64,000 nt of DNA, from assembly GCA_028714455.1 (NCBI GenBank), contig JAQTMG010000001.1:568-64567 (forward strand), written 5' to 3'. The stretch is from Patescibacteria group bacterium. GTDB lineage: Bacteria > Patescibacteriota > Patescibacteriia > CAIXNZ01. This document shows, one piece after another, positions 3,483 through 10,085 of this stretch (its first letter is position 1; each line of letters begins with the position of its first letter). Under the pieces are notes generated by a model. It saw only the letters and a list, made by a program, of their open reading frames with translations. It was not told the origin of the DNA and ran no database searches. The position numbers and the translations under genes were made by a program.

Positions 3483-4111
3483 TTTTTATCAGCTATTAAA
3501 ATAATAAATTTGCTACTAAATCTATAAGGAATTTTTGCCTTAACAATTTCTGGGCGAACTTCGGATTCATAAATCTTAACCCTATAATTTTTAAAAAGTT
3601 TTTTAAGAATATTTTTGGCTTCCTGTAATTTATAAAGTGGTTCCTTGCCAATCTTAATAAATTTACCAGCAAAAGAGATTCTTTTTAAATCAGTAGCAAA
3701 ATCTATTATAACCCTTCCATTCTTATTTAAAACCCTGTCTATTTCTCTAAATACTTTCGGTAAAATTTTTCTTGGCAGAAGATGTAGGGTACCGGTGCAA
3801 AAGACACCATCAAAATAATTATCTTTAAAAGGAAATTTTTTAGTAATATCAAAAACCCTAATCTTTAATTTTGACTTATACTTAGTCGGGGTATTACTCC
3901 TCAATTTATTCAAAGCGCCCTTGTCAACGTCCGAAGCAATGACAAAATCTACCTTTTTCAATAGATTTAAATTGTAACGACCGTCGCCGCCTGCCAGATT
4001 AAGCCATCTACCTTTAATTTTAGTCTCTTCCAAAAACTTAAGGGTATCTTTATCACCCTTACCCCAAATGGATTTTCTTTTATTCTCAATTGTTTTAAGT
4101 TTAAATTTCAT
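3479..4111 (-). CDS. class I SAM-dependent methyltransferase
   Basis: 210 aa; motif LNLAGGDGRY, FDGVFCTG; start overlaps uvrB; shares 22-nt start-region duplication with uvrB. Confidence 0.75.
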   Translation of the reverse strand: MKFKLKTIENKRKSIWGKGDKDTLKFLEETKIKGRWLNLAGGDGRYNLNLLKKVDFVIASDVDKGALNKLRSNTPTKYKSKLKIRVFDITKKFPFKDNYFDGVFCTGTLHLLPRKILPKVFREIDRVLNKNGRVIIDFATDLKRISFAGKFIKIGKEPLYKLQEAKNILKKLFKNYRVKIYESEVRPEIVKAKIPYRFSSKFIILIADKK

Positions 4112-4855
4112 TTATTTTTTATTGTCATTCTTGCAAACCATAATATAATCTCCGTATTGTGATTCAATATCGGGCCAGGTCTTAACCACCTCGACATTGC
4201 CAAAATATTTATTAAAAATAGGCAACCGTTTTTTCAATGAAGTTTTATACTCGTTCTTCATCACATCATTATGCAAAATATCTACGGTGGCTGCAATGAC
4301 ATCATCTGGAGCGCCATTTTTGATAGTTTCCACTAAATATTCATATCCCAATTTAGCAGCTGCGATTTTTCTTTCTTTCTCGTTGGCATAATCATCAATA
4401 TGACAGTCGGAAATTATTACTAACCCGTCTGGCTTAACCATGTCCGCGATTCTGGCAATTGCCCGATCCTGTTTTTCGTATACAATATGATGAATTGAGC
4501 CCGTGCAGATAACTACATCAAAGAGTTGCTGCGGTTGCCATGAAAGAGTATCTCCTACTTCAAAACTAATCTTAGGATATTTCTCTTTAGAAAAACTGAT
4601 ATATCTTTCATCCAAATCAACGCCCACAAGTTTAAGGTCACCTCTCTTGTCTGATATTTGGCCAAGCAAATATCCTGGCCCGCACATTATGTCCAGCAAA
4701 GTGCCATTTTTCGGCGCTTGAGAATTTATAATTTCTAGCACTTTTTCAAGCGACTTTTTATAGGGCATATAGAGCAACTCCAGCTCATAAATTTTTGACT
4801 CGGGTAGTTCTTTCATATAATTTGGATTATTTATTTGACACCTCAATTTTACCAT
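4112..4855 (-). CDS. class I SAM-dependent methyltransferase
   Basis: Motif I LLDIMCGPGYLLGQ, DVVICTGSIHH; ORF-track N-terminal extension (to 5047) reads through two tRNA genes and is rejected; start at MVKLRCQ (4855) or MKELPES (4816). Confidence 0.7.
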   Translation of the reverse strand: MVKLRCQINNPNYMKELPESKIYELELLYMPYKKSLEKVLEIINSQAPKNGTLLDIMCGPGYLLGQISDKRGDLKLVGVDLDERYISFSKEKYPKISFEVGDTLSWQPQQLFDVVICTGSIHHIVYEKQDRAIARIADMVKPDGLVIISDCHIDDYANEKERKIAAAKLGYEYLVETIKNGAPDDVIAATVDILHNDVMKNEYKTSLKKRLPIFNKYFGNVEVVKTWPDIESQYGDYIMVCKNDNKK

Positions 4856-4867
4856 TTTACACCAAAA

Positions 4868-4898
4868 ACAAAAAACCGTCCAGATTGAACGGTTTGAA
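4868..4898 (-). terminator. terminator after tRNA pair (minus strand)
   Basis: accgttcaatctggacggt hairpin followed by TTTTTGTTTTT on minus strand. Confidence 0.5.
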
Positions 4899-4902
4899 TT
4901 TA

Positions 4903-4978
4903 TGGAGCGGGGAGCGGGAGTCGAACCCGCAACACCCAGATTGGAAGTCTGATACTCTGCCAATTGAGTTACCCCCGC
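4903..4978 (-). tRNA. tRNA-Gly (anticodon UCC), CCA encoded
   Basis: Manual cloverleaf: acceptor GCGGGGG/TCCCCGC, D-stem ACTC/GAGT, anticodon loop CTTCCAA, T-arm GCGGG-TTCGACT-CCCGC. Confidence 0.85.
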
Positions 4979-4998
4979 CCTAAAGAACGAATGTTTGT

Positions 4999-5075
4999 TG
5001 GTCGGGCTGGTGGGACTCGAACCCACGATCTCTTGGTCCCAAACCAAGCGCGATAGCCAGCTTCGCTACAGCCCG
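4999..5075 (-). tRNA. tRNA-Pro (anticodon UGG), CCA encoded
   Basis: Manual cloverleaf: acceptor CGGGCTG/CAGCCCG, anticodon loop TTTGGGA, T-arm GTGGG-TTCGAGT-CCCAC. Confidence 0.85.
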
Positions 5076-5220
5076 ACCCGTTAATTAAGGATTGTAGCAT
5101 AAATTAGTCAAGCTGTCAATGGGGCGGAATAGTAACTTTTAATTATTCACAAATTATTGACAAGAGAGAAAAAAGGCGCTAAGATAAAATATCAAAATAG
5201 AACCTTAACAAGGAGGTAAA

Positions 5221-5772
5221 ATGGCCAGCGAGAATAAAGAGCCTGTTAGCCTGCCAGTGTATAAGACCAAACCCGAATTCTTACTAACGTTATGGGACGT
5301 TAAATCCAGACATCTACAATTATTGCGTGATGCCGTACCCGTAGCGTTTCTCTCGCCCTCAAAAAGAAAAATACCGTTGTATAGTCGAGACCAATGCGAA
5401 CAAATCGATATAATCGGAGAACACGAGGGCTTACCCATCTATTGGAAAAAACCCGACGGACTATTTACCGAGTCAGATTTAAAGAAGATGGGATTTAAAT
5501 TAGTAGCCCAGGCCAAACCTACCGGCGTCATCAAATATGAGTTCGCACGAATGGGTAATTATCTCTACCCGATATCGCAATCAATCCCCAGGCTTAAACA
5601 TAAACATCTGACTAAATTCGAACGTATACTTTGGGCGGCGGATATCGAGTCGGATCTAAAAAATCTAAAACAGAGGGAAGTTGCAGAAAAATATGGCTGT
5701 TCTCTAAAGCTGGTGTCTAAACTGAAAAAAACATTTCAAAGGCTAAATCAAGGGAGAGAGGCTAGCGTTTAA
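5221..5772 (+). CDS. hypothetical protein with C-terminal HTH-like segment (183 aa), GC-elevated
   Basis: Strong SD aacaaggaggtaaaATG; C-terminal KQREVAEKYGCSLKLVSKLKK resembles an HTH; GC clearly higher than flanks. Confidence 0.6.
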   Translation: MASENKEPVSLPVYKTKPEFLLTLWDVKSRHLQLLRDAVPVAFLSPSKRKIPLYSRDQCEQIDIIGEHEGLPIYWKKPDGLFTESDLKKMGFKLVAQAKPTGVIKYEFARMGNYLYPISQSIPRLKHKHLTKFERILWAADIESDLKNLKQREVAEKYGCSLKLVSKLKKTFQRLNQGREASV

Positions 5773-5774
5773 AA

Positions 5775-5805
5775 CAAAATCCCTCCGCGCCGCGGAGGGA
5801 TTTTT
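5775..5805. terminator. bidirectional Rho-independent terminator
   Basis: ccctccgcg-ccg-cggaggg hairpin followed by T-run. Confidence 0.6.
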
Positions 5806-5820
5806 CTATTTTTAGAATTT

Positions 5821-6114
5821 CTATTTGTTCTCTAATTCGATGCCAATTCCGCCAATCCAGCCAGCCACTAGGTTATAAAGCCAAGCGACGATTGCGCCGG
5901 AAATAAAACCGCCAATGCCGTACATAATCGGCATAAGAATGATGGCAAACAAACCGCCTCCCATCATGCCCCAACCGCCCTGGTCACCCAGCATACCTGA
6001 AATGCCGGCACCGACTAAGGCGAAAAGGATTCCCAGGACAAGTCCCAGAATTACGCCCAGTAAACCTTCGACTTTTGCGACTGAAAGTACATCCAGACTT
6101 TTGATTTTTGTCAT
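5821..6114 (-). CDS. glycine-zipper small membrane protein (GlsB/YeaQ/YmgE-like?)
   Basis: 97 aa, Gly-rich hydrophobic repeats GxxxG; family assignment tentative. Confidence 0.55.
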   Translation of the reverse strand: MTKIKSLDVLSVAKVEGLLGVILGLVLGILFALVGAGISGMLGDQGGWGMMGGGLFAIILMPIMYGIGGFISGAIVAWLYNLVAGWIGGIGIELENK

Positions 6115-6202
6115 AGATTTTGGTTAATTATATTCCACCCCCATTATAACAAAAAAAGAAAAAACCGTCACTTTCGTGACGGTTTGAACGCTTAATCTTG
6201 TC

Positions 6203-6547
6203 CTATACATTGAGGTTGGTGATAACCTTCTCCTTTATGGGAACCTCTTTGGGAATTTCCTCGTCTGCATAATAGAATTCGAGTTCCTCTTGAGACAAGG
6301 ACTCTCTGATGCTCGGCGACAAAGAGGCGGGTTGAATTATCTCGCCTTTTTCCCTGGCCAACTCTGCTTCCTCACGCGATTCATAGACCTGGTTTCCAGA
6401 AGTACGCGGGATGCAAAAGCGCTTGAGAAACGGGCTGTTATCAGCAAACAGCTCAAACACAAAGTCTTTTGCTTCCTGACCATGAGGGAATATCTTCTCC
6501 AATTTTCCACCATCTCTGTACATCACCACGTAAGTGTAATCGGGCAT
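6203..6547 (-). CDS. hypothetical protein (114 aa), last gene of GC-rich small-protein operon
   Basis: Strong SD aaaaggaggccaaaATG; acidic C-terminus; YTYVVMYRDGG segment weakly resembles the IPH-motif paralogs upstream. Confidence 0.55.
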   Translation of the reverse strand: MPDYTYVVMYRDGGKLEKIFPHGQEAKDFVFELFADNSPFLKRFCIPRTSGNQVYESREEAELAREKGEIIQPASLSPSIRESLSQEELEFYYADEEIPKEVPIKEKVITNLNV

Positions 6548-6560
6548 TTTGGCCTCCTTT

Positions 6561-6722
6561 TCATTCAGCCCAAAGTCTGTACCAGTTTCCGTCTTTTGTC
6601 AACGCGTATCTTCTAAGTCCTTTTGTCAGTTTTGCCACCAATTCTTTACAAAACGGAGCTCCCACGCTTAATGCCCAGAAGCTCGGTTTTTGCAAATTCT
6701 CAAATTTGACCTTTCTGGCCAT
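6561..6722 (-). CDS. small ORF (53 aa) MARKVKFENLQKPSFWALSVGAPFCKELVAKLTKGLRRYALTKDGNWYRLWAE
   Basis: Not in ORF track (<60 aa); strong SD gaggagggtaaaATG; fills gap between flanking operon genes. Confidence 0.4.
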   Translation of the reverse strand: MARKVKFENLQKPSFWALSVGAPFCKELVAKLTKGLRRYALTKDGNWYRLWAE

Positions 6723-6723
6723 T

Positions 6724-7083
6724 TTACCCTCCTCTTCGCTGGCTCATGGCGATTGACAGAATTTCCTCGGGCTCCATGTCAAAGTCCGGCGGTAAGGGCT
6801 TGCCGTTTTGCGACATCATCACCTGTTCGAGCGAATCATGAGGAATCAACAAAATGGTGTACTCCCTTCCCGTTGACCTCTCAAAAGAGCAGACCTCGTC
6901 ATTCAGGCGGATGATCGTTCTCTCCACTTCTGAATCAATGTGCCAAGATCCAAATCTTGGCGGCGTAGTCTCGCCCTTACGCCTCGCTTTCATGGCCAAA
7001 GCCAAGATTTGTTCGGCAGGCGTGGAATTATCATTGGCCAAAAACGCCGTTGACCGACATAACGATTCTTTCATCGGCCGCAT
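6724..7083 (-). CDS. small hypothetical protein, paralog B (IPH-motif family); true start probably 6993 (MKARRK..., 89 aa)
   Basis: Core HIDSEVERTIIRLNDEVCSFERSTGREYTILLIPHDSLEQVMMSQNG aligns with paralog A; 5' part of the long ORF overlaps paralog A in another frame. Confidence 0.5.
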   Translation of the reverse strand: MRPMKESLCRSTAFLANDNSTPAEQILALAMKARRKGETTPPRFGSWHIDSEVERTIIRLNDEVCSFERSTGREYTILLIPHDSLEQVMMSQNGKPLPPDFDMEPEEILSIAMSQRRGG

Positions 7084-7207
7084 GAGGAATAAAAAGAACT
7101 GCGTACTCGTTACCTGATTTCCCAGAAAACTTTTTGATTCCTTCGTTCAGCTCAAGCAACGCCCCGCTCACGCCTTCATCAATATGCAACGAATCATTTT
7201 CTCCCAT
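7031..7207 (-). CDS. small hypothetical protein, paralog A (58 aa; MGENDSLHIDEGVSGALLELNEGIKKFSGKSGNEYAVLFIPHAADERIVMSVNGVFGQ)
   Basis: Start at internal ATG 7207 with SD aaaaaggagggttcaaaATG; the ORF-track start 7264 lies inside the promoter. Confidence 0.5.
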   Translation of the reverse strand: MGENDSLHIDEGVSGALLELNEGIKKFSGKSGNEYAVLFIPHAADERIVMSVNGVFGQ

Positions 7208-7236
7208 TTTGAACCCTCCTTTTTGTATTTGTTGAC

Positions 7237-7264
7237 ATTTTATAAGTTTATGGCAAAAAGTCAA
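7237..7264 (-). promoter_or_regulatory. promoter TTGACT-N16-TAAAAT for the small-protein operon
   Basis: RC of 7259-7264 is TTGACT, RC of 7237-7242 is TAAAAT. Confidence 0.4.
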
Positions 7265-7339
7265 GAAAAATCATTTGTCACAGCCAAAAAATTATCATAT
7301 AATTAAATAAGGGATTTCGCCCTCTTTTATTTTTACTAT

Positions 7340-7395
7340 GAGCCATGAGCTCGAAGCACGGAGCTCTAAGCCCTAAGCCCAGAGCTCGAGGCCTT
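7340..7395. repeat. tandem heptamer array, 8 units (GAGCCAT GAGCTCG AAGCACG GAGCTCT AAGCCCT AAGCCCA GAGCTCG AGGCCTT)
   Basis: Strict 7-nt periodicity directly upstream of the smc start codon; member of dispersed RAGCYCN family. Confidence 0.65.
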
Positions 7396-7400
7396 CCAAT

Positions 7401-10085
7401 ATGTTTTTAAAAAAATTAGAAATTCAGGGTTTCAAATCTTTTGCCAATAAGATTGTTTTGGAATTTCCAGAAAAAGCCAAAAACACCAGGGGTATCACGG
7501 CTGTGGTCGGTCCAAATGGCTCGGGCAAGTCAAATACGGCCGATGCCATCCGCTGGGCTTTGGGCGAACAGAGCATCAAGATGCTGCGCGGCAAAAAAAG
7601 CGAGGATGTCATCTTTACTGGTTCTGACAAGAAAGCGCGCATGGGTTTTGCCGAGGTTTCTTTATTTTTGGATAATCACGATAAATCGGCTGACATTGAT
7701 TATGAAGAATTAATTATTACGCGCCGCGTCTACAGAAACGGCGACAGCGGATATCTTATCAATAACGCCAAGGCGCGTCTGGCTGACATTCAGTTGCTTT
7801 TAGCCAAAGCCAATTTTGGCCAGCGCAGTTATTCCATCATCGGCCAAGGCATGGCTGATTCTGTTTTGTCTGCTTCACTCCAAGAGAGAAAAGAACTTTT
7901 TGATGAGGCAGTCGGTGTTCGCCAGCTGCAGATTAAACGCGAACAGGCGCTCAATAAATTTAAAGCAACCCGAGACAATCTGGCGCAGACGGCAGTTACT
8001 CTGTCAGAAATAGAACCGCGAATAAGATCGCTTACCAGACAGGTAAAAAAACTGGAGAAGCGCGAAGAGTTTGAAAAAGAGCTAAAAGTCATTCAGCTTG
8101 ATTACTTCGCCCAGATCTGGCAGCGGCTGGAAAAAAACCAAAAAGACATAGAAATTAAAAAAAATGAGCTGGATAAAACCGCGTCTTCTTTAAGTGAGAA
8201 AATTCAGATCATCGAAAGCAAAATTAATGAATCATCGGCAGAGAGTTCGCGCCAGGTTCTTTTTGAAAAAATCCAGAACGAATATAATAATTTGATTTTG
8301 CAAAAAAATTCTCTTTTACGCGACCAGACGATTTTGAAAGCCAAGTTGGATGTGGAATTTGAGAAGCAGGGCCAGGGCAATGTGGTCTGGCTCAAAAACA
8401 GAGTCGAGGAAATCCAAAATCAGATTACCAATCACAAGCAGCAACTTTCGGAGATTGAAGACCTGATCAAAAAAGAACAAACCAATTTAAAAAATAAAGA
8501 AAACAATTTTGAATCAATCAACAAGCGCTTGGAAAATGTTAGAACAGAATTAAACCAAATCAAGGGTTCTGACAGTCAGCCTTTTGAGGGAGAAAAAGAG
8601 CTGGAAGCGATTTTTGAGCTGCAACAAGATCTGGTCAACAAACTTCTGAAGGTTGAAAATATTGAAGAACTGAAAGAGCTAAAAAATCAGGCGCGAGAAG
8701 TTTCGCAAAAACTTTCTGTCTACCTGGAAAAATTAAAAAGTGTAAAAAAACAAGGTGCTGATAATCTTTTTAATCTGCAAAACCAGCTGGAAGCCTTGAG
8801 CAAGGAAAAAAATGACTTGAGCTTGGAAATTTCCCAGTTCAAATTAAACCTGAATATAAAAAATGAAAAAATCACCTCGCTCAATCAGGAAATCACCAAG
8901 CTAAATTCGGAAATTGAAAAAATCAATCAGGAAATTTCCTTGAGCCAGGTTAAAAATGACAAAAAAGAATTTACCAGCCAGGTTGAAAAACAAATTAAAG
9001 AAGCCGAGACAAAAATTTCTGATCTAGACAAAAAAATCAGCGAACAGGCAGCCAAAATTTCTGACTTTAACAAAGATGAACAGGGTAAAAAAGAAAAATT
9101 AATTGAATTGCAGAAGGAATTTCAGGAAAAACTTAATCAGCTTAGCCAGCTTAACCAAAAAATTAGTCAGTTTGATATTGAGCTGGCCAAATATTCAACT
9201 CGCAAGGAGGATATTGAAAGCGAAATCAGGCAGGAAAAACTGGAGTTAGCCACAATTTCAAAACATCGAGCCGAAAAAGAGCTGGATGAGAATGCCGCCA
9301 GCGAACAGATTCAATATCTCAAGAGGCAAATGGAAATAATCGGCGGCATTGATGAAGAGACTCAAAAAGAATACACGGAAATCAAAGAGCGCTATGACTT
9401 TTTAAAAACGCAGTCCGAAGATCTGGAAAAAGCCATTAGTTCGGCTGAAAAAATCATTGAAGAACTCGATCGCACAATCAAGGAACAGTTTGACAAAGCC
9501 TTTAAAGAAATCAACAAGGAATTCCAAAAATATTTCCGAGTACTTTTCAACGGCGGTCAAGCCGAATTGATTAAAGTTAGCGTGGATGAAATAAAAAAAG
9601 AAGAGAAAGAAGAGAAAGAGGGGGAAGAAGGCAAAGAAGGAGCAGAGGAAGAGTCGGGCGTTTTGGCCCAGGCCGAAAAATTTGTGGAAAAATTAAAGCA
9701 AAAAGAAAAAGAGAGTTACGCGGGTATTGAAATTAAAGCCGTGCCGCCTGGCAAAAAAGTAAAGTCAATAAATATGCTTTCTGGCGGCGAGCGAGCCCTC
9801 ACTTCAATCGCCTTAATTTCGGCTATTATCGCCAATAATCCTTCGCCCTTTGTCGTGCTTGATGAAGTTGACGCGGCTCTGGACGAAGCCAATTCGGAAA
9901 GGTTTAGTTATATTATTGAAGAGCTGGCCCAAAAAACTCAATTCATTGTCATTACTCATAACCGTGTGACCATGCACAAAGCCGATGTACTTTACGGCGT
10001 GACTATGGGCGACGACGGCGTTTCTAAATTACTTTCAATCAAACTGGCCGACGCCGAGGATATGGTTGGCTCGGTCAGAGGTTAA
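7401..10085 (+). CDS. smc: SMC-like chromosome segregation ATPase (894 aa), apparently hinge-less
   Basis: N-terminal Walker A VVGPNGSGKSN, long coiled coils, C-terminal signature LSGGERALTSIAL, Walker B VVLDEVDAALD, D-loop; no recognisable glycine-rich hinge in the middle. Confidence 0.85.
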   Translation: MFLKKLEIQGFKSFANKIVLEFPEKAKNTRGITAVVGPNGSGKSNTADAIRWALGEQSIKMLRGKKSEDVIFTGSDKKARMGFAEVSLFLDNHDKSADIDYEELIITRRVYRNGDSGYLINNAKARLADIQLLLAKANFGQRSYSIIGQGMADSVLSASLQERKELFDEAVGVRQLQIKREQALNKFKATRDNLAQTAVTLSEIEPRIRSLTRQVKKLEKREEFEKELKVIQLDYFAQIWQRLEKNQKDIEIKKNELDKTASSLSEKIQIIESKINESSAESSRQVLFEKIQNEYNNLILQKNSLLRDQTILKAKLDVEFEKQGQGNVVWLKNRVEEIQNQITNHKQQLSEIEDLIKKEQTNLKNKENNFESINKRLENVRTELNQIKGSDSQPFEGEKELEAIFELQQDLVNKLLKVENIEELKELKNQAREVSQKLSVYLEKLKSVKKQGADNLFNLQNQLEALSKEKNDLSLEISQFKLNLNIKNEKITSLNQEITKLNSEIEKINQEISLSQVKNDKKEFTSQVEKQIKEAETKISDLDKKISEQAAKISDFNKDEQGKKEKLIELQKEFQEKLNQLSQLNQKISQFDIELAKYSTRKEDIESEIRQEKLELATISKHRAEKELDENAASEQIQYLKRQMEIIGGIDEETQKEYTEIKERYDFLKTQSEDLEKAISSAEKIIEELDRTIKEQFDKAFKEINKEFQKYFRVLFNGGQAELIKVSVDEIKKEEKEEKEGEEGKEGAEEESGVLAQAEKFVEKLKQKEKESYAGIEIKAVPPGKKVKSINMLSGGERALTSIALISAIIANNPSPFVVLDEVDAALDEANSERFSYIIEELAQKTQFIVITHNRVTMHKADVLYGVTMGDDGVSKLLSIKLADAEDMVGSVRG

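Follow-up and report, generated by a model that had tools for sequence, protein, structure and literature searches.

A frameshifted tandem-domain gene in a Patescibacteria operon and a new protein domain family found on chromosomes and predicted viral contigs

The co-oriented minus-strand gene block at 6203-7264 of the window (the whole stretch of 64,000 nucleotides that was analysed) is a single transcription unit on a Falkowbacteria-like Patescibacteria chromosome, with four cistrons, A to D, delineated from the list of open reading frames and the sequence. Comparison with relatives indicates that A and B are the halves of one gene of ~160 aa encoding two tandem copies of a ~75-aa domain; A is now an N-terminal fragment in which domain 1 is truncated, and B still holds the intact second domain. 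The domain family and its apparent fold are new, as no match was obtained in the curated family or structure libraries searched.

The minus-strand operon that had been read from the sequence alone is real. Its predicted sigma70-like promoter (7237..7264, minus strand) has the -35 element TTGACT at 7264-7259, a 16-nt spacer and the -10 element TAAAAT at 7242-7237, with 10/12 matches in the consensus scan, and the operon ends at an intrinsic terminator detected by a terminator scan (6185-6162) and delimited at 6152..6185 on the same strand, with a 10-bp stem (AAACCGTCAC/GTGACGGTTT) and a T-run; an equivalent hairpin lies 3' of D at the related locus L001. Cistron A (7031..7207, minus strand, 58 aa, PHC97_00075) starts at ATG 7207 downstream of the Shine-Dalgarno site AAAGGAGGG and stops prematurely at TGA 7033-7031, and a protein identical to it is already on public record. 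Cistron C (6561..6722, minus strand, 53 aa, pI 10.1), preceded by the Shine-Dalgarno sequence GGAGGG, starts at ATG 6722, 1 nt past the stop of B; it had been taken for an unannotated frame, but the public record carries it as PHC97_00065. Cistron D (6203..6547, minus strand, 114 aa, pI 4.7) starts at ATG 6547 and is PHC97_00060, annotated as 106 aa. Strong Shine-Dalgarno sites had been claimed before each cistron, and GGAGG sites do precede A, C and D, but B has none at any of its candidate starts (ATG 7083, 7074 and 6993). The tRNA-Gly and tRNA-Pro genes noted nearby are present at 4903-5075, and Rfam found no RNA element in the block, the two tRNAs being the sole matches.

ORF B (7083-6724) corresponds to PHC97_00070, annotated as 116 aa from ATG 7074, and includes domain copy 2 (6724..6951, minus strand; 75 aa, GSWHID...SQRRGG, then the stop), which matches the family HMM with 109 bits and is the best-conserved part, with 89% amino acid identity and a dN/dS of 0.11 against L001. 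Of domain copy 1, cistron A supplies helix 1 and the strands, and its match to the family HMM (E=8.7e-16) covers profile positions 3-51 only. The C-terminal helix of this copy and the inter-domain linker are found in the frame-B segment LANDNSTPAEQILALAMKARRKGETTPPRF (6952..7041, minus strand), in which no start codon with its own Shine-Dalgarno site was read. What had been described as tandem paralogs is a true repeat (BLASTP of A against the downstream ORF, 41% identity over 49 aa, E=3e-14), but it belongs to a single gene that the loss of 2 nt relative to L001 has split. The switch from frame A to frame B lies at 7039..7045 on the minus strand, where the DNA alignment sets GGCGTTTTTGG of the window against GGTGTGATTTTGG of L001, the deletion falling in the T-run at 7044-7040. 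P0002, the relative encoded at L001, is in frame across this junction (...VMSVNGVILDKDNKTPPEQIL...), where the window lacks 2 nt, and A and B are one gene by origin. On conceptual repair, A+B gives two full-length matches to the family HMM, the first covering residues 6-78 with 68.6 bits and spanning the frame-B segment. Counting this repaired protein and the partial P0002, there were 16 two-domain proteins among the matches (e.g. P0005, 157 aa), and the C-terminal domain scored higher with the HMM in 12 of them.

The frameshift is also present in an independent Logan assembly of identical sequence, and L001 has a frameshift of its own, from the loss of 1 nt 61 columns further upstream in alignment A1; the reading frame is broken in each of the two-domain sequences of this sub-lineage (window and L001). 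Against L001, dN/dS is 0.07-0.24 over all segments on both sides of the shift (0.24 in the frame-B segment), and since such values persist downstream of each shift, the shifts are either recent or artefacts. Programmed ribosomal frameshifting was rejected, as L001 keeps its frame where the window shifts and is itself shifted elsewhere, intact two-domain relatives are single ORFs, and the A-to-B shift is +1 with no known +1 motif in the sequence. The C-terminal domain could be produced by re-initiation at ATG 6993, 38 nt past the stop of A; as ORF B has no Shine-Dalgarno site, the split gene is possibly inactive in the source genome. For annotation this means that PHC97_00070 and PHC97_00075 should be treated as parts of a single frameshifted gene.

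Homologs of D follow the domain gene at L001 (37% identity, E=1e-16) and in a Falkowbacteria relative, L010 (36%, E=1e-15). A D-HMM run over 108 loci found D nowhere outside the window, L001 and L010, and D stands beside the domain gene in 3 of ~90 loci. With a dN/dS of 0.19 against L001, D appears to be a fast-evolving acidic partner protein restricted to the window's sub-lineage. A weaker version of the domain motif had been seen in D, but comparison gave BLASTP E=13, no domain-HMM match and an hhalign probability of 0.1%, and D was rejected as a divergent domain copy; its AlphaFold2 single-sequence model (pLDDT 40.6) was too low for use. Cistron C is missing from L001, and in L010 a non-homologous 66-aa ORF takes its place. 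It is an orphan ORF, a cluster of one, that is plausibly coding, and kinship to the domain or to the middle ORF of L010 was rejected on comparison. No relatives of D or C were found on viral contigs.

The profile search gathered 208 clusters at 50% identity, made up of single-domain or tandem two-domain proteins of 72-161 aa with the signature W/Y-H-x-D ... L-x-D-x-L-C-x-W-E-R-x-T-G-R ... L-I-P-H-x-x-D-E ... G-K-P. Members are acidic (median pI 5.35, with 77% under pI 6), the repaired protein of the window carrying a charge of -10. The metagenome scan used the pattern L[LN]D[AE]L[CK]x[WF]ER, which repeat 2 of the window (LNDEVCSFER) does not fit, so the closest two-domain relatives are probably under-sampled. 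The AlphaFold2 model of domain copy 2 is confident (pLDDT 93.1; H7-27, E32-35, E45-48, H61-74) and predicts a fold of helix, three-stranded sheet and helix. Searches of Pfam, NCBIfam, PHROGs and PADLOC with A, B, C, D and the repaired A+B gave nothing near threshold, and those of Pfam with 110 members and PHROGs with 58 gave scattered single chance-level matches only, such as Anti-RecBCD_p2 in 1/110 members (E=0.077); the C-terminus of P0093 matched the excisionase-type HTH_17 below threshold (E=0.029). The family profile matched nothing in NCBIfam, PADLOC or the PDB sequences (0 hits with the PDB sequence profile), and Foldseek with the domain model found no match at E<0.3 in PDB and BFVD. 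Its top matches, none significant, were the MADS domains of MEF2, SRF and MCM1 (TM 0.38-0.48, E>0.4), with a dsRBD lower in the list, and the MADS and dsRBD matches overall ranged over TM 0.29-0.48 at E>0.4. A literature search returned nothing specific. The suggestion of a small-protein family without assigned function is therefore borne out by the curated libraries and solved structures, Foldseek included.

All named members are from Patescibacteria, and relatives were located on 10 viral contigs of IMG/VR and on another three contigs of phage-like character, in keeping with the phage connection that had been suspected. By Pfam, the neighbourhoods on phage contigs are early blocks for replication, recombination and methylation (ERF/YqaJ, DNA methylase, DUF5131, DnaB); at L026 the member has an ERF annealase gene on one side and a YqaJ exonuclease gene on the other, and ERF was a neighbour in 2/89 loci. 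One member on a viral contig shares 69% identity with a member whose contig was binned with a Saccharibacteria MAG. Four different queries against 50,697 deposited phage genomes returned zero domain relatives, and the phage link accordingly rests on the predicted viral contigs. Many chromosomal copies lie amid housekeeping genes with no sign of mobile elements: the domain gene is beside smc in the window and L010, in the latter also beside uvrB, it is divergent from radA and near a DNA glycosylase gene at L110, and tRNA synthetase genes surround other copies. At L110 the intact two-domain gene also has beside it a third paralog that is transcribed separately, and a HicA toxin gene is adjacent at L007. 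A search for co-occurring partners found none constant among 89 unique loci, where no family reached more than 3-4 loci when neighbours within four genes were clustered all-against-all; nor did a Pfam census of 150 neighbours show a conserved partner, and no recurrent HTH gene stood beside the domain gene. In L010, whose SMC is 82% identical, the domain gene and the D homolog occupy the same place beside smc, with 56% identity for the domain and 36% for D; architecture and middle ORF differ between close relatives. The conserved position beside smc marks it as an accessory locus of long residence that evolves fast, rather than a fresh island. It comes close to what the sequence-only reading had set against itself, ordinary core genes of typical GC: the locus is conserved in its lineage, but it evolves fast and is not typical core.

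The base composition had been given as ~50% GC against a background of ~37%, but the window as a whole has 40.8% and the block 46.1%, a value reached or exceeded by 11% of segments of the same size. Among the cistrons ORF B alone stands out (51% GC, ~1.6 SD over the gene mean). The GC of the domain gene is a little above that of its flanks in the window and L010, and as it exceeds that of its surroundings in 25/32 low-GC loci, the excess appears to be a family trait. The repeat search found no tRNA-derived repeat, the tRNA genes sharing no exact match of at least 11 nt with the 11 kb that follow, and the ORF list shows no integrase-like ORF in 4000-9500. Neither a tRNA-associated island or prophage remnant nor the freshly acquired GC-rich island that had been proposed at the tRNAs is supported: tRNA repeats and an integrase are missing, the locus is syntenic in L010, and the GC of the block lies inside the normal range of the window.

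We hold the anatomy and the evolutionary description with considerable confidence. The mechanism, a dimer-forming, protein-binding modulator of phage type, is doubtful when taken by itself, and the whole package of anatomy, evolutionary description and mechanism is given a little better than an even chance. The domain would act as a dimer, and the recurrent tandem fusions, whose C-terminal copy is usually better conserved, would be covalent pseudo-dimers. It would bind another protein and not nucleic acid, and its likely role would be to modulate, as a phage-type protein, some widely conserved function of the host or the phage, perhaps one in defence or in DNA transactions. In its fuller form, with an unseen fold family of phage-borne (pseudo-)dimeric inhibitors or adaptors that act on a conserved part of the machinery for DNA metabolism or defence, pass between phages and Patescibacteria and are kept in the latter as a hypervariable locus, here with D, the proposal is a speculative one that we think unlikely. 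Phage anti-defence proteins such as AcrIIA4, AcrIF13 and the DNA mimic Ocr are likewise of 70-160 aa, acidic, fast-evolving and devoid of enzymatic motifs, and are encoded among small early phage genes like the members on phage contigs; AcrIF13 is among the weak Foldseek matches to the domain model (E=0.68). The family is small, acidic and phage-encoded as Acr proteins are, but these features are generic and not diagnostic; it shows no significant sequence or fold match and no consistently adjacent aca-type HTH gene, and most members reside in Patescibacteria chromosomes amid housekeeping genes. The lambda gam and P22 abc genes sit at the same kind of position in recombination modules as the member at L026, which recalls the anti-RecBCD proteins Gam and Abc1/Abc2, but that position recurs in just 2/89 loci, and the lone Anti-RecBCD_p2 match is at chance level.

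The housekeeping surroundings without mobile elements fit equally well a cellular accessory factor specific to Patescibacteria, for example an adaptor in chromosome maintenance or DNA repair whose phage copies are host-derived and have no role in conflict. The copies beside smc, uvrB, radA/DNA glycosylase and tRNA synthetase genes, the restriction of named members to Patescibacteria and the purifying selection (dN/dS ~0.1) speak for such a factor. We nevertheless consider it improbable, as there is no constant neighbour in the 89 loci, genomes of Patescibacteria are dense in information-processing genes, which makes adjacency weak evidence, the domain and D diverge far faster than SMC, architecture and middle ORF vary among close relatives, and frameshifts interrupt both two-domain sequences of the sub-lineage. 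These independent frameshifts (2 nt in the window and 1 nt in L001), the one in the window being reproduced in a second assembly, together with the lack of a Shine-Dalgarno site at any start of B, could also mean that the two-domain gene is a pseudogene in both genomes and the operon a decaying, functionless remnant. This is distinctly unlikely in our judgement, as dN/dS stays low in every segment, downstream of the shifts too, the promoter, Shine-Dalgarno sites, terminator and D are all intact, and domain 2 is complete with re-initiation possible.

That the domain is a DNA- or RNA-binding dimeric regulator is less credible again, although its topology recalls MADS/SRF-type and dsRBD folds. 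The MADS-box proteins MEF2, SRF and MCM1, the most frequent among the weak Foldseek matches, have a similar order of elements, namely a long N-terminal helix, a beta hairpin or sheet and a C-terminal helix, and the HTH_17 match of P0093 points the same way. MADS domains are dimeric, and we infer as much for the new domain. However, every Foldseek match has E>0.4 and TM<0.5, MADS domains are basic and DNA-binding while this family is acidic and has no basic helix, and there is neither sequence similarity to MADS domains nor a match to any Pfam DNA- or RNA-binding family. The horizontally acquired toxin/immunity or toxin-antitoxin island beside tRNA-Pro, which the sequence-only reading had favoured, is largely refuted and very improbable. 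Small genes near tRNA genes, the GC excess of the domain gene over its flanks in the window and L010, the phage relatives and the HicA gene at L007 had suggested it, and the abutting or overlapping cistrons of small proteins resemble type II toxin-antitoxin operons. Against it stand the missing tRNA repeats and integrase, the synteny in L010 and a GC content inside the range of the window; moreover, neither toxin, antitoxin or defence families (PADLOC included) nor a DNA-binding antitoxin domain were matched, no toxin-like or DNA-binding partner was present, and no gene pair is conserved over the 89 loci.

Patescibacteria (CPR) have small genomes in which about half of the genes lack an assigned function, and to our knowledge the phages of these bacteria are almost unknown. 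The novelty here is limited to a protein family and its apparent fold and does not extend to a biological system, and many such families exist. As a compact domain with a confident model and ~200 clusters, common to Patescibacteria chromosomes and viral contigs, it offers a handle on possible phage-host exchange. If the phage-type inhibitor or adaptor reading is true, its members would be among the first experimentally tractable phage-host interaction factors in this uncultivated episymbiotic phylum.

The four ORFs at 6203-7264 belong to a compact transcription unit on the minus strand (7264 to 6152), in which consensus scans placed a sigma70-like promoter (TTGACT-16 nt-TAAAAT, 7264-7237) and an intrinsic terminator with a T-run after it (6185-6162) on the same strand. 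These are ORF A (58 aa, 7207-7031), ORF B (119 aa counted from the first ATG, 7083-6724), ORF C (53 aa, 6722-6561) and ORF D (114 aa, 6547-6203). GGAGG-type Shine-Dalgarno sites were located upstream of A, C and D, and none at the candidate starts of B (7083, 7074 and 6993). In the public record, a 193-kb contig of a Patescibacteria MAG, each of the four is annotated as a hypothetical protein (PHC97_00060 to 00075), the 53-aa ORF included, which the sequence-only reading had called unannotated.

That reading had described an operon of four small genes with tandem paralogs; both the operon and the repeat hold up, but A and B are the two parts of one gene split by a frameshift. A aligned with the C-terminal part of B at 41% identity (49 aa, E=3e-14). 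The nearest relative, P0002 on contig L001 (repeat 2 89% identical), continues uninterrupted across the position of the stop of A (...IVMSVNGVILDKDNKTPPEQILALAMKERHKG...WHIDSEVERT...), and the DNA alignment with L001 has a 2-nt gap in the window at GGCGT--TTTTGG (7045-7039), which shifts translation from frame A to frame B. Repairing the shift in silico gave a 161-aa protein with two full-length matches to the family HMM (residues 6-78, 68.6 bits; 87-159, 108.6 bits), and the C-terminal helix of domain 1, missing from A, was found to be encoded in frame B, upstream of repeat 2. With dN/dS against L001 of 0.12 for repeat 1, 0.24 for the frame-B linker and 0.11 for repeat 2, protein-level selection acted on all parts for most of the divergence from L001. 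A conserved programmed frameshift is ruled out by L001, which carries a separate 1-nt deletion within repeat 1; as this deletion differs from the shift in the window, both are recent or artefactual. Run SRR22315509, assembled independently in Logan, has the shift of the window identical base for base, hence this shift is no assembler artefact, with the proviso that these reads may be the same as those of the MAG.

Two-domain proteins with the reading frame intact, 139-181 aa long, turn up repeatedly in the family. Of 16 two-domain proteins, 12 have a C-terminal domain that matches the profile of the family better than the N-terminal one does; repeat 1 of the window has lost the ER-x-x-GR motif (KKFSGKSGNE vs CSFERSTGRE). 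One of the intact proteins, P0005 (157 aa; L110, 5001-5474), is divergent from radA and is followed by a terminator, a promoter-like region and a divergent single-domain paralog of 91 aa (5617-5892), an arrangement also seen in L111. As L110 thus has a third, separately transcribed copy, local paralog clusters do occur in the family.

The domain family appears to be undescribed. A profile search over 1.84 billion representative proteins retrieved 208 clusters at E<=1e-3, of which 76 remained at E<=1e-10, with members mostly 70-95 aa long and the consensus xxxHxDxxVxxALxxLxDALCxxERxTGRxxTLxLIPHxxDE......GKP....A...R. No member matched Pfam or PHROG above chance, NCBIfam and PADLOC gave no match to the window proteins, nor did PDB sequences to the family profile. 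For repeat 2, AlphaFold2 with a 58-sequence alignment gave a confident model (pLDDT 93.1, pTM 0.77), predicted as a helix of 21 residues followed by a small sheet of three strands and a second helix at the C-terminus. Foldseek returned nothing significant against PDB (best E 0.46, TM<0.5; mostly MADS-box domains, also AcrIF13 and one dsRBD) or BFVD (best E 0.31). The family is acidic, with a median pI of 5.35 and values <6 in 77%. P0093 (189 aa) has a C-terminal extension (residues 106-154) with a full-length, sub-threshold match to the excisionase-type HTH_17 (E=0.029, 15 bits vs a cut-off of 27) and may be a rare case of the family domain fused to a DNA-binding one.

All organism-named members are from Patescibacteria (Falkow-, Wolfe-, Zambryski-, Wildermuth- and Saccharibacteria), where the domain gene has ordinary chromosomal neighbours that differ from locus to locus: tRNA synthetase genes on either side in L003, greA nearby in L005, hicAB adjoining in L007 and radA divergent in L110. 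Across 89 unique loci, sequence clustering and a Pfam census of 150 neighbours revealed no neighbour family in more than 3-4 loci, the commonest being a class-I SAM methyltransferase (4 loci). Relatives are also carried by 10 IMG/VR viral contigs (GC 37-68%) and three further phage-like contigs, in runs of small early-type ORFs. Pfam confirmed ERF and YqaJ directly flanking the member in L026 and, flanking or nearby, DUF5131 (L019, L023, L017), C5 and N6/N4 DNA methylases (L019, L027, L016), DnaB (L022), a small terminase (L021), a Mu transposase (L028), and ThyX with DNA polymerase III alpha (L016). A viral-contig member shares 69% identity with a member whose contig was binned with a Saccharibacteria MAG; among 50,697 deposited phage genomes, four different members used as queries found no relative. 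On the 2.1-kb contig L002 (1-2138), the single-domain P0003 (88 aa) comes after GTP cyclohydrolase I and PTPS/QueD genes. Such genes of the 7-deazaguanine pathway are employed in DNA modification by some phages.

The weaker version of the motif once read into D was not borne out: BLASTP gave E=13, hhalign a probability of 0.1% and the HMM no match, the sole likeness being FPHGQEA vs IPHDSLE. The domain gene is followed by a homolog of D in L001 (37% identity) and L010 (36%), and none was found in the other loci or the viral contigs, D being a partner restricted to this lineage. D is acidic (pI 4.7), and its L010 homolog bears a long Asp/Glu-rich tail with a net charge of -24. The basic ORF C (pI 10.1) has a Shine-Dalgarno site of its own and fits tightly into the space between B and D. 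L001 lacks it, the B stop there abutting the D start, and L010 has an unrelated 66-aa ORF in its stead; C had no relatives on viral contigs and formed a 90%-identity cluster of its own. Since its Shine-Dalgarno site and start align with those of D in L001, we infer that C arose through insertion at the 5' end of D. The 14-nt GGTAAAATGGCCAG, which spans the end of a Shine-Dalgarno site, the ATG and five bases beyond it, occurs in identical form at 5215-5228 and 6715-6728, the starts of a plus-strand 183-aa gene and of C (chance expectation about 0.1 in the 5.7-kb region).

Nucleotide identity with L001 is mosaic: ~75% in repeat 1 and linker, 84-98% in repeat 2 with a peak at 6874-6815, and ~50% in D. 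Comparing 6815-6951 (repeat 2) with 6952-7207 and 6203-6547, dS was 0.47 against 1.5-3 in the flanks (1.5-2 in repeat 1 and linker), the synonymous sites of repeat 2 being conserved to an unusual degree. In this comparison of two sequences, the pattern could reflect recent exchange of the repeat 2 segment alone or an overlapping nucleic-acid constraint.

The locus had been suspected to be a horizontally acquired toxin/immunity or phage-derived module, or else a small-protein family. A small-protein family with phage relatives is what the searches support; the toxin/immunity island is not. No tRNA-derived repeat, integrase or Rfam element marking an island boundary was found. In L010, a Falkowbacteria MAG contig whose SMC is 82% identical to that of the window, the genes divergent from smc are a member with one domain, at 56% identity, a small ORF and a D homolog, with uvrB following; with the module in the same place beside smc, it predates the split of the two genomes. 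Taken together with the quick changes between them (one domain vs two, a replaced middle ORF, D at 36% identity), this conserved position fits a long-resident, fast-evolving accessory locus, and neither a recent island nor a standard core gene. The contrast of ~50% against ~37% GC had been overstated, at 46.1% for the block vs 40.8% for the window; genes of the window range from 27.5% to 54.9% (mean 41.4%, SD 6.1), and 11% of same-size windows equal or exceed the block. Among 53 family loci, the domain gene was richer by a mean of 3.8 GC points where the background was <45% (25 of 32 loci richer) and poorer by 1.7 points on average where it was higher. Because the modest excess recurs across low-GC loci, it would belong to the gene family as such and not point to a recent import of the locus.

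The operon is separated from the tRNAs by two further hypothetical genes, which share a bidirectional terminator (5776-5804). The 183-aa gene (5221-5772, plus) had only sub-threshold C-terminal HTH/sigma-70-region-4-like matches (HTH_23 E=0.041, TIGR02937 E=0.024), and the 97-aa glycine-zipper membrane protein (5821-6114, minus) matched DUF3566 just below threshold (21.6 vs 22.2 bits). Neither occurs at the L010 syntenic site, where uvrB comes after the D homolog. The listed 311-aa ORF at 4112-5047 (minus) crosses tRNA-Gly and tRNA-Pro (4903-5075), so its N-terminal ~80 residues are an ORF-calling artefact; the gene proper starts further downstream and encodes a class-I SAM methyltransferase, and a similar enzyme is encoded beside the domain gene in 3-4 other loci, L005 and L008 included. 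Two 29-nt cassettes (4852-4880 and 6141-6169, 79% identical), one after the tRNA pair and the other after the operon, each join an intrinsic-terminator tail (GACGGTTTTTT) to a TATAAT-like -10 box serving the minus-strand gene that follows. In the smc upstream region (7330-7395), GAGCTC and GGGCTTAG motifs abound in short, degenerate repeats (TRF, 7362-7380: period 7, 2.7 copies).

As tandem two-domain versions and adjacent paralogs arise repeatedly and independently, the functional unit may be a dimer, and the fused forms would be pseudo-dimers whose N-terminal copy is free to degenerate. Acidic charge, together with the lack of catalytic or nucleic-acid-binding signatures, points to a role in protein binding. 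Rival readings of low probability are a purely cellular accessory role, a decaying remnant in the genome of the window, and a nucleic-acid-binding regulator. A toxin/immunity function is the least supported reading. Since the phage copies sit among recombination, replication and DNA-modification genes, the most economical guess, albeit a doubtful one, is that the domain would be a dimeric, protein-binding modulator of DNA transactions or host defence.
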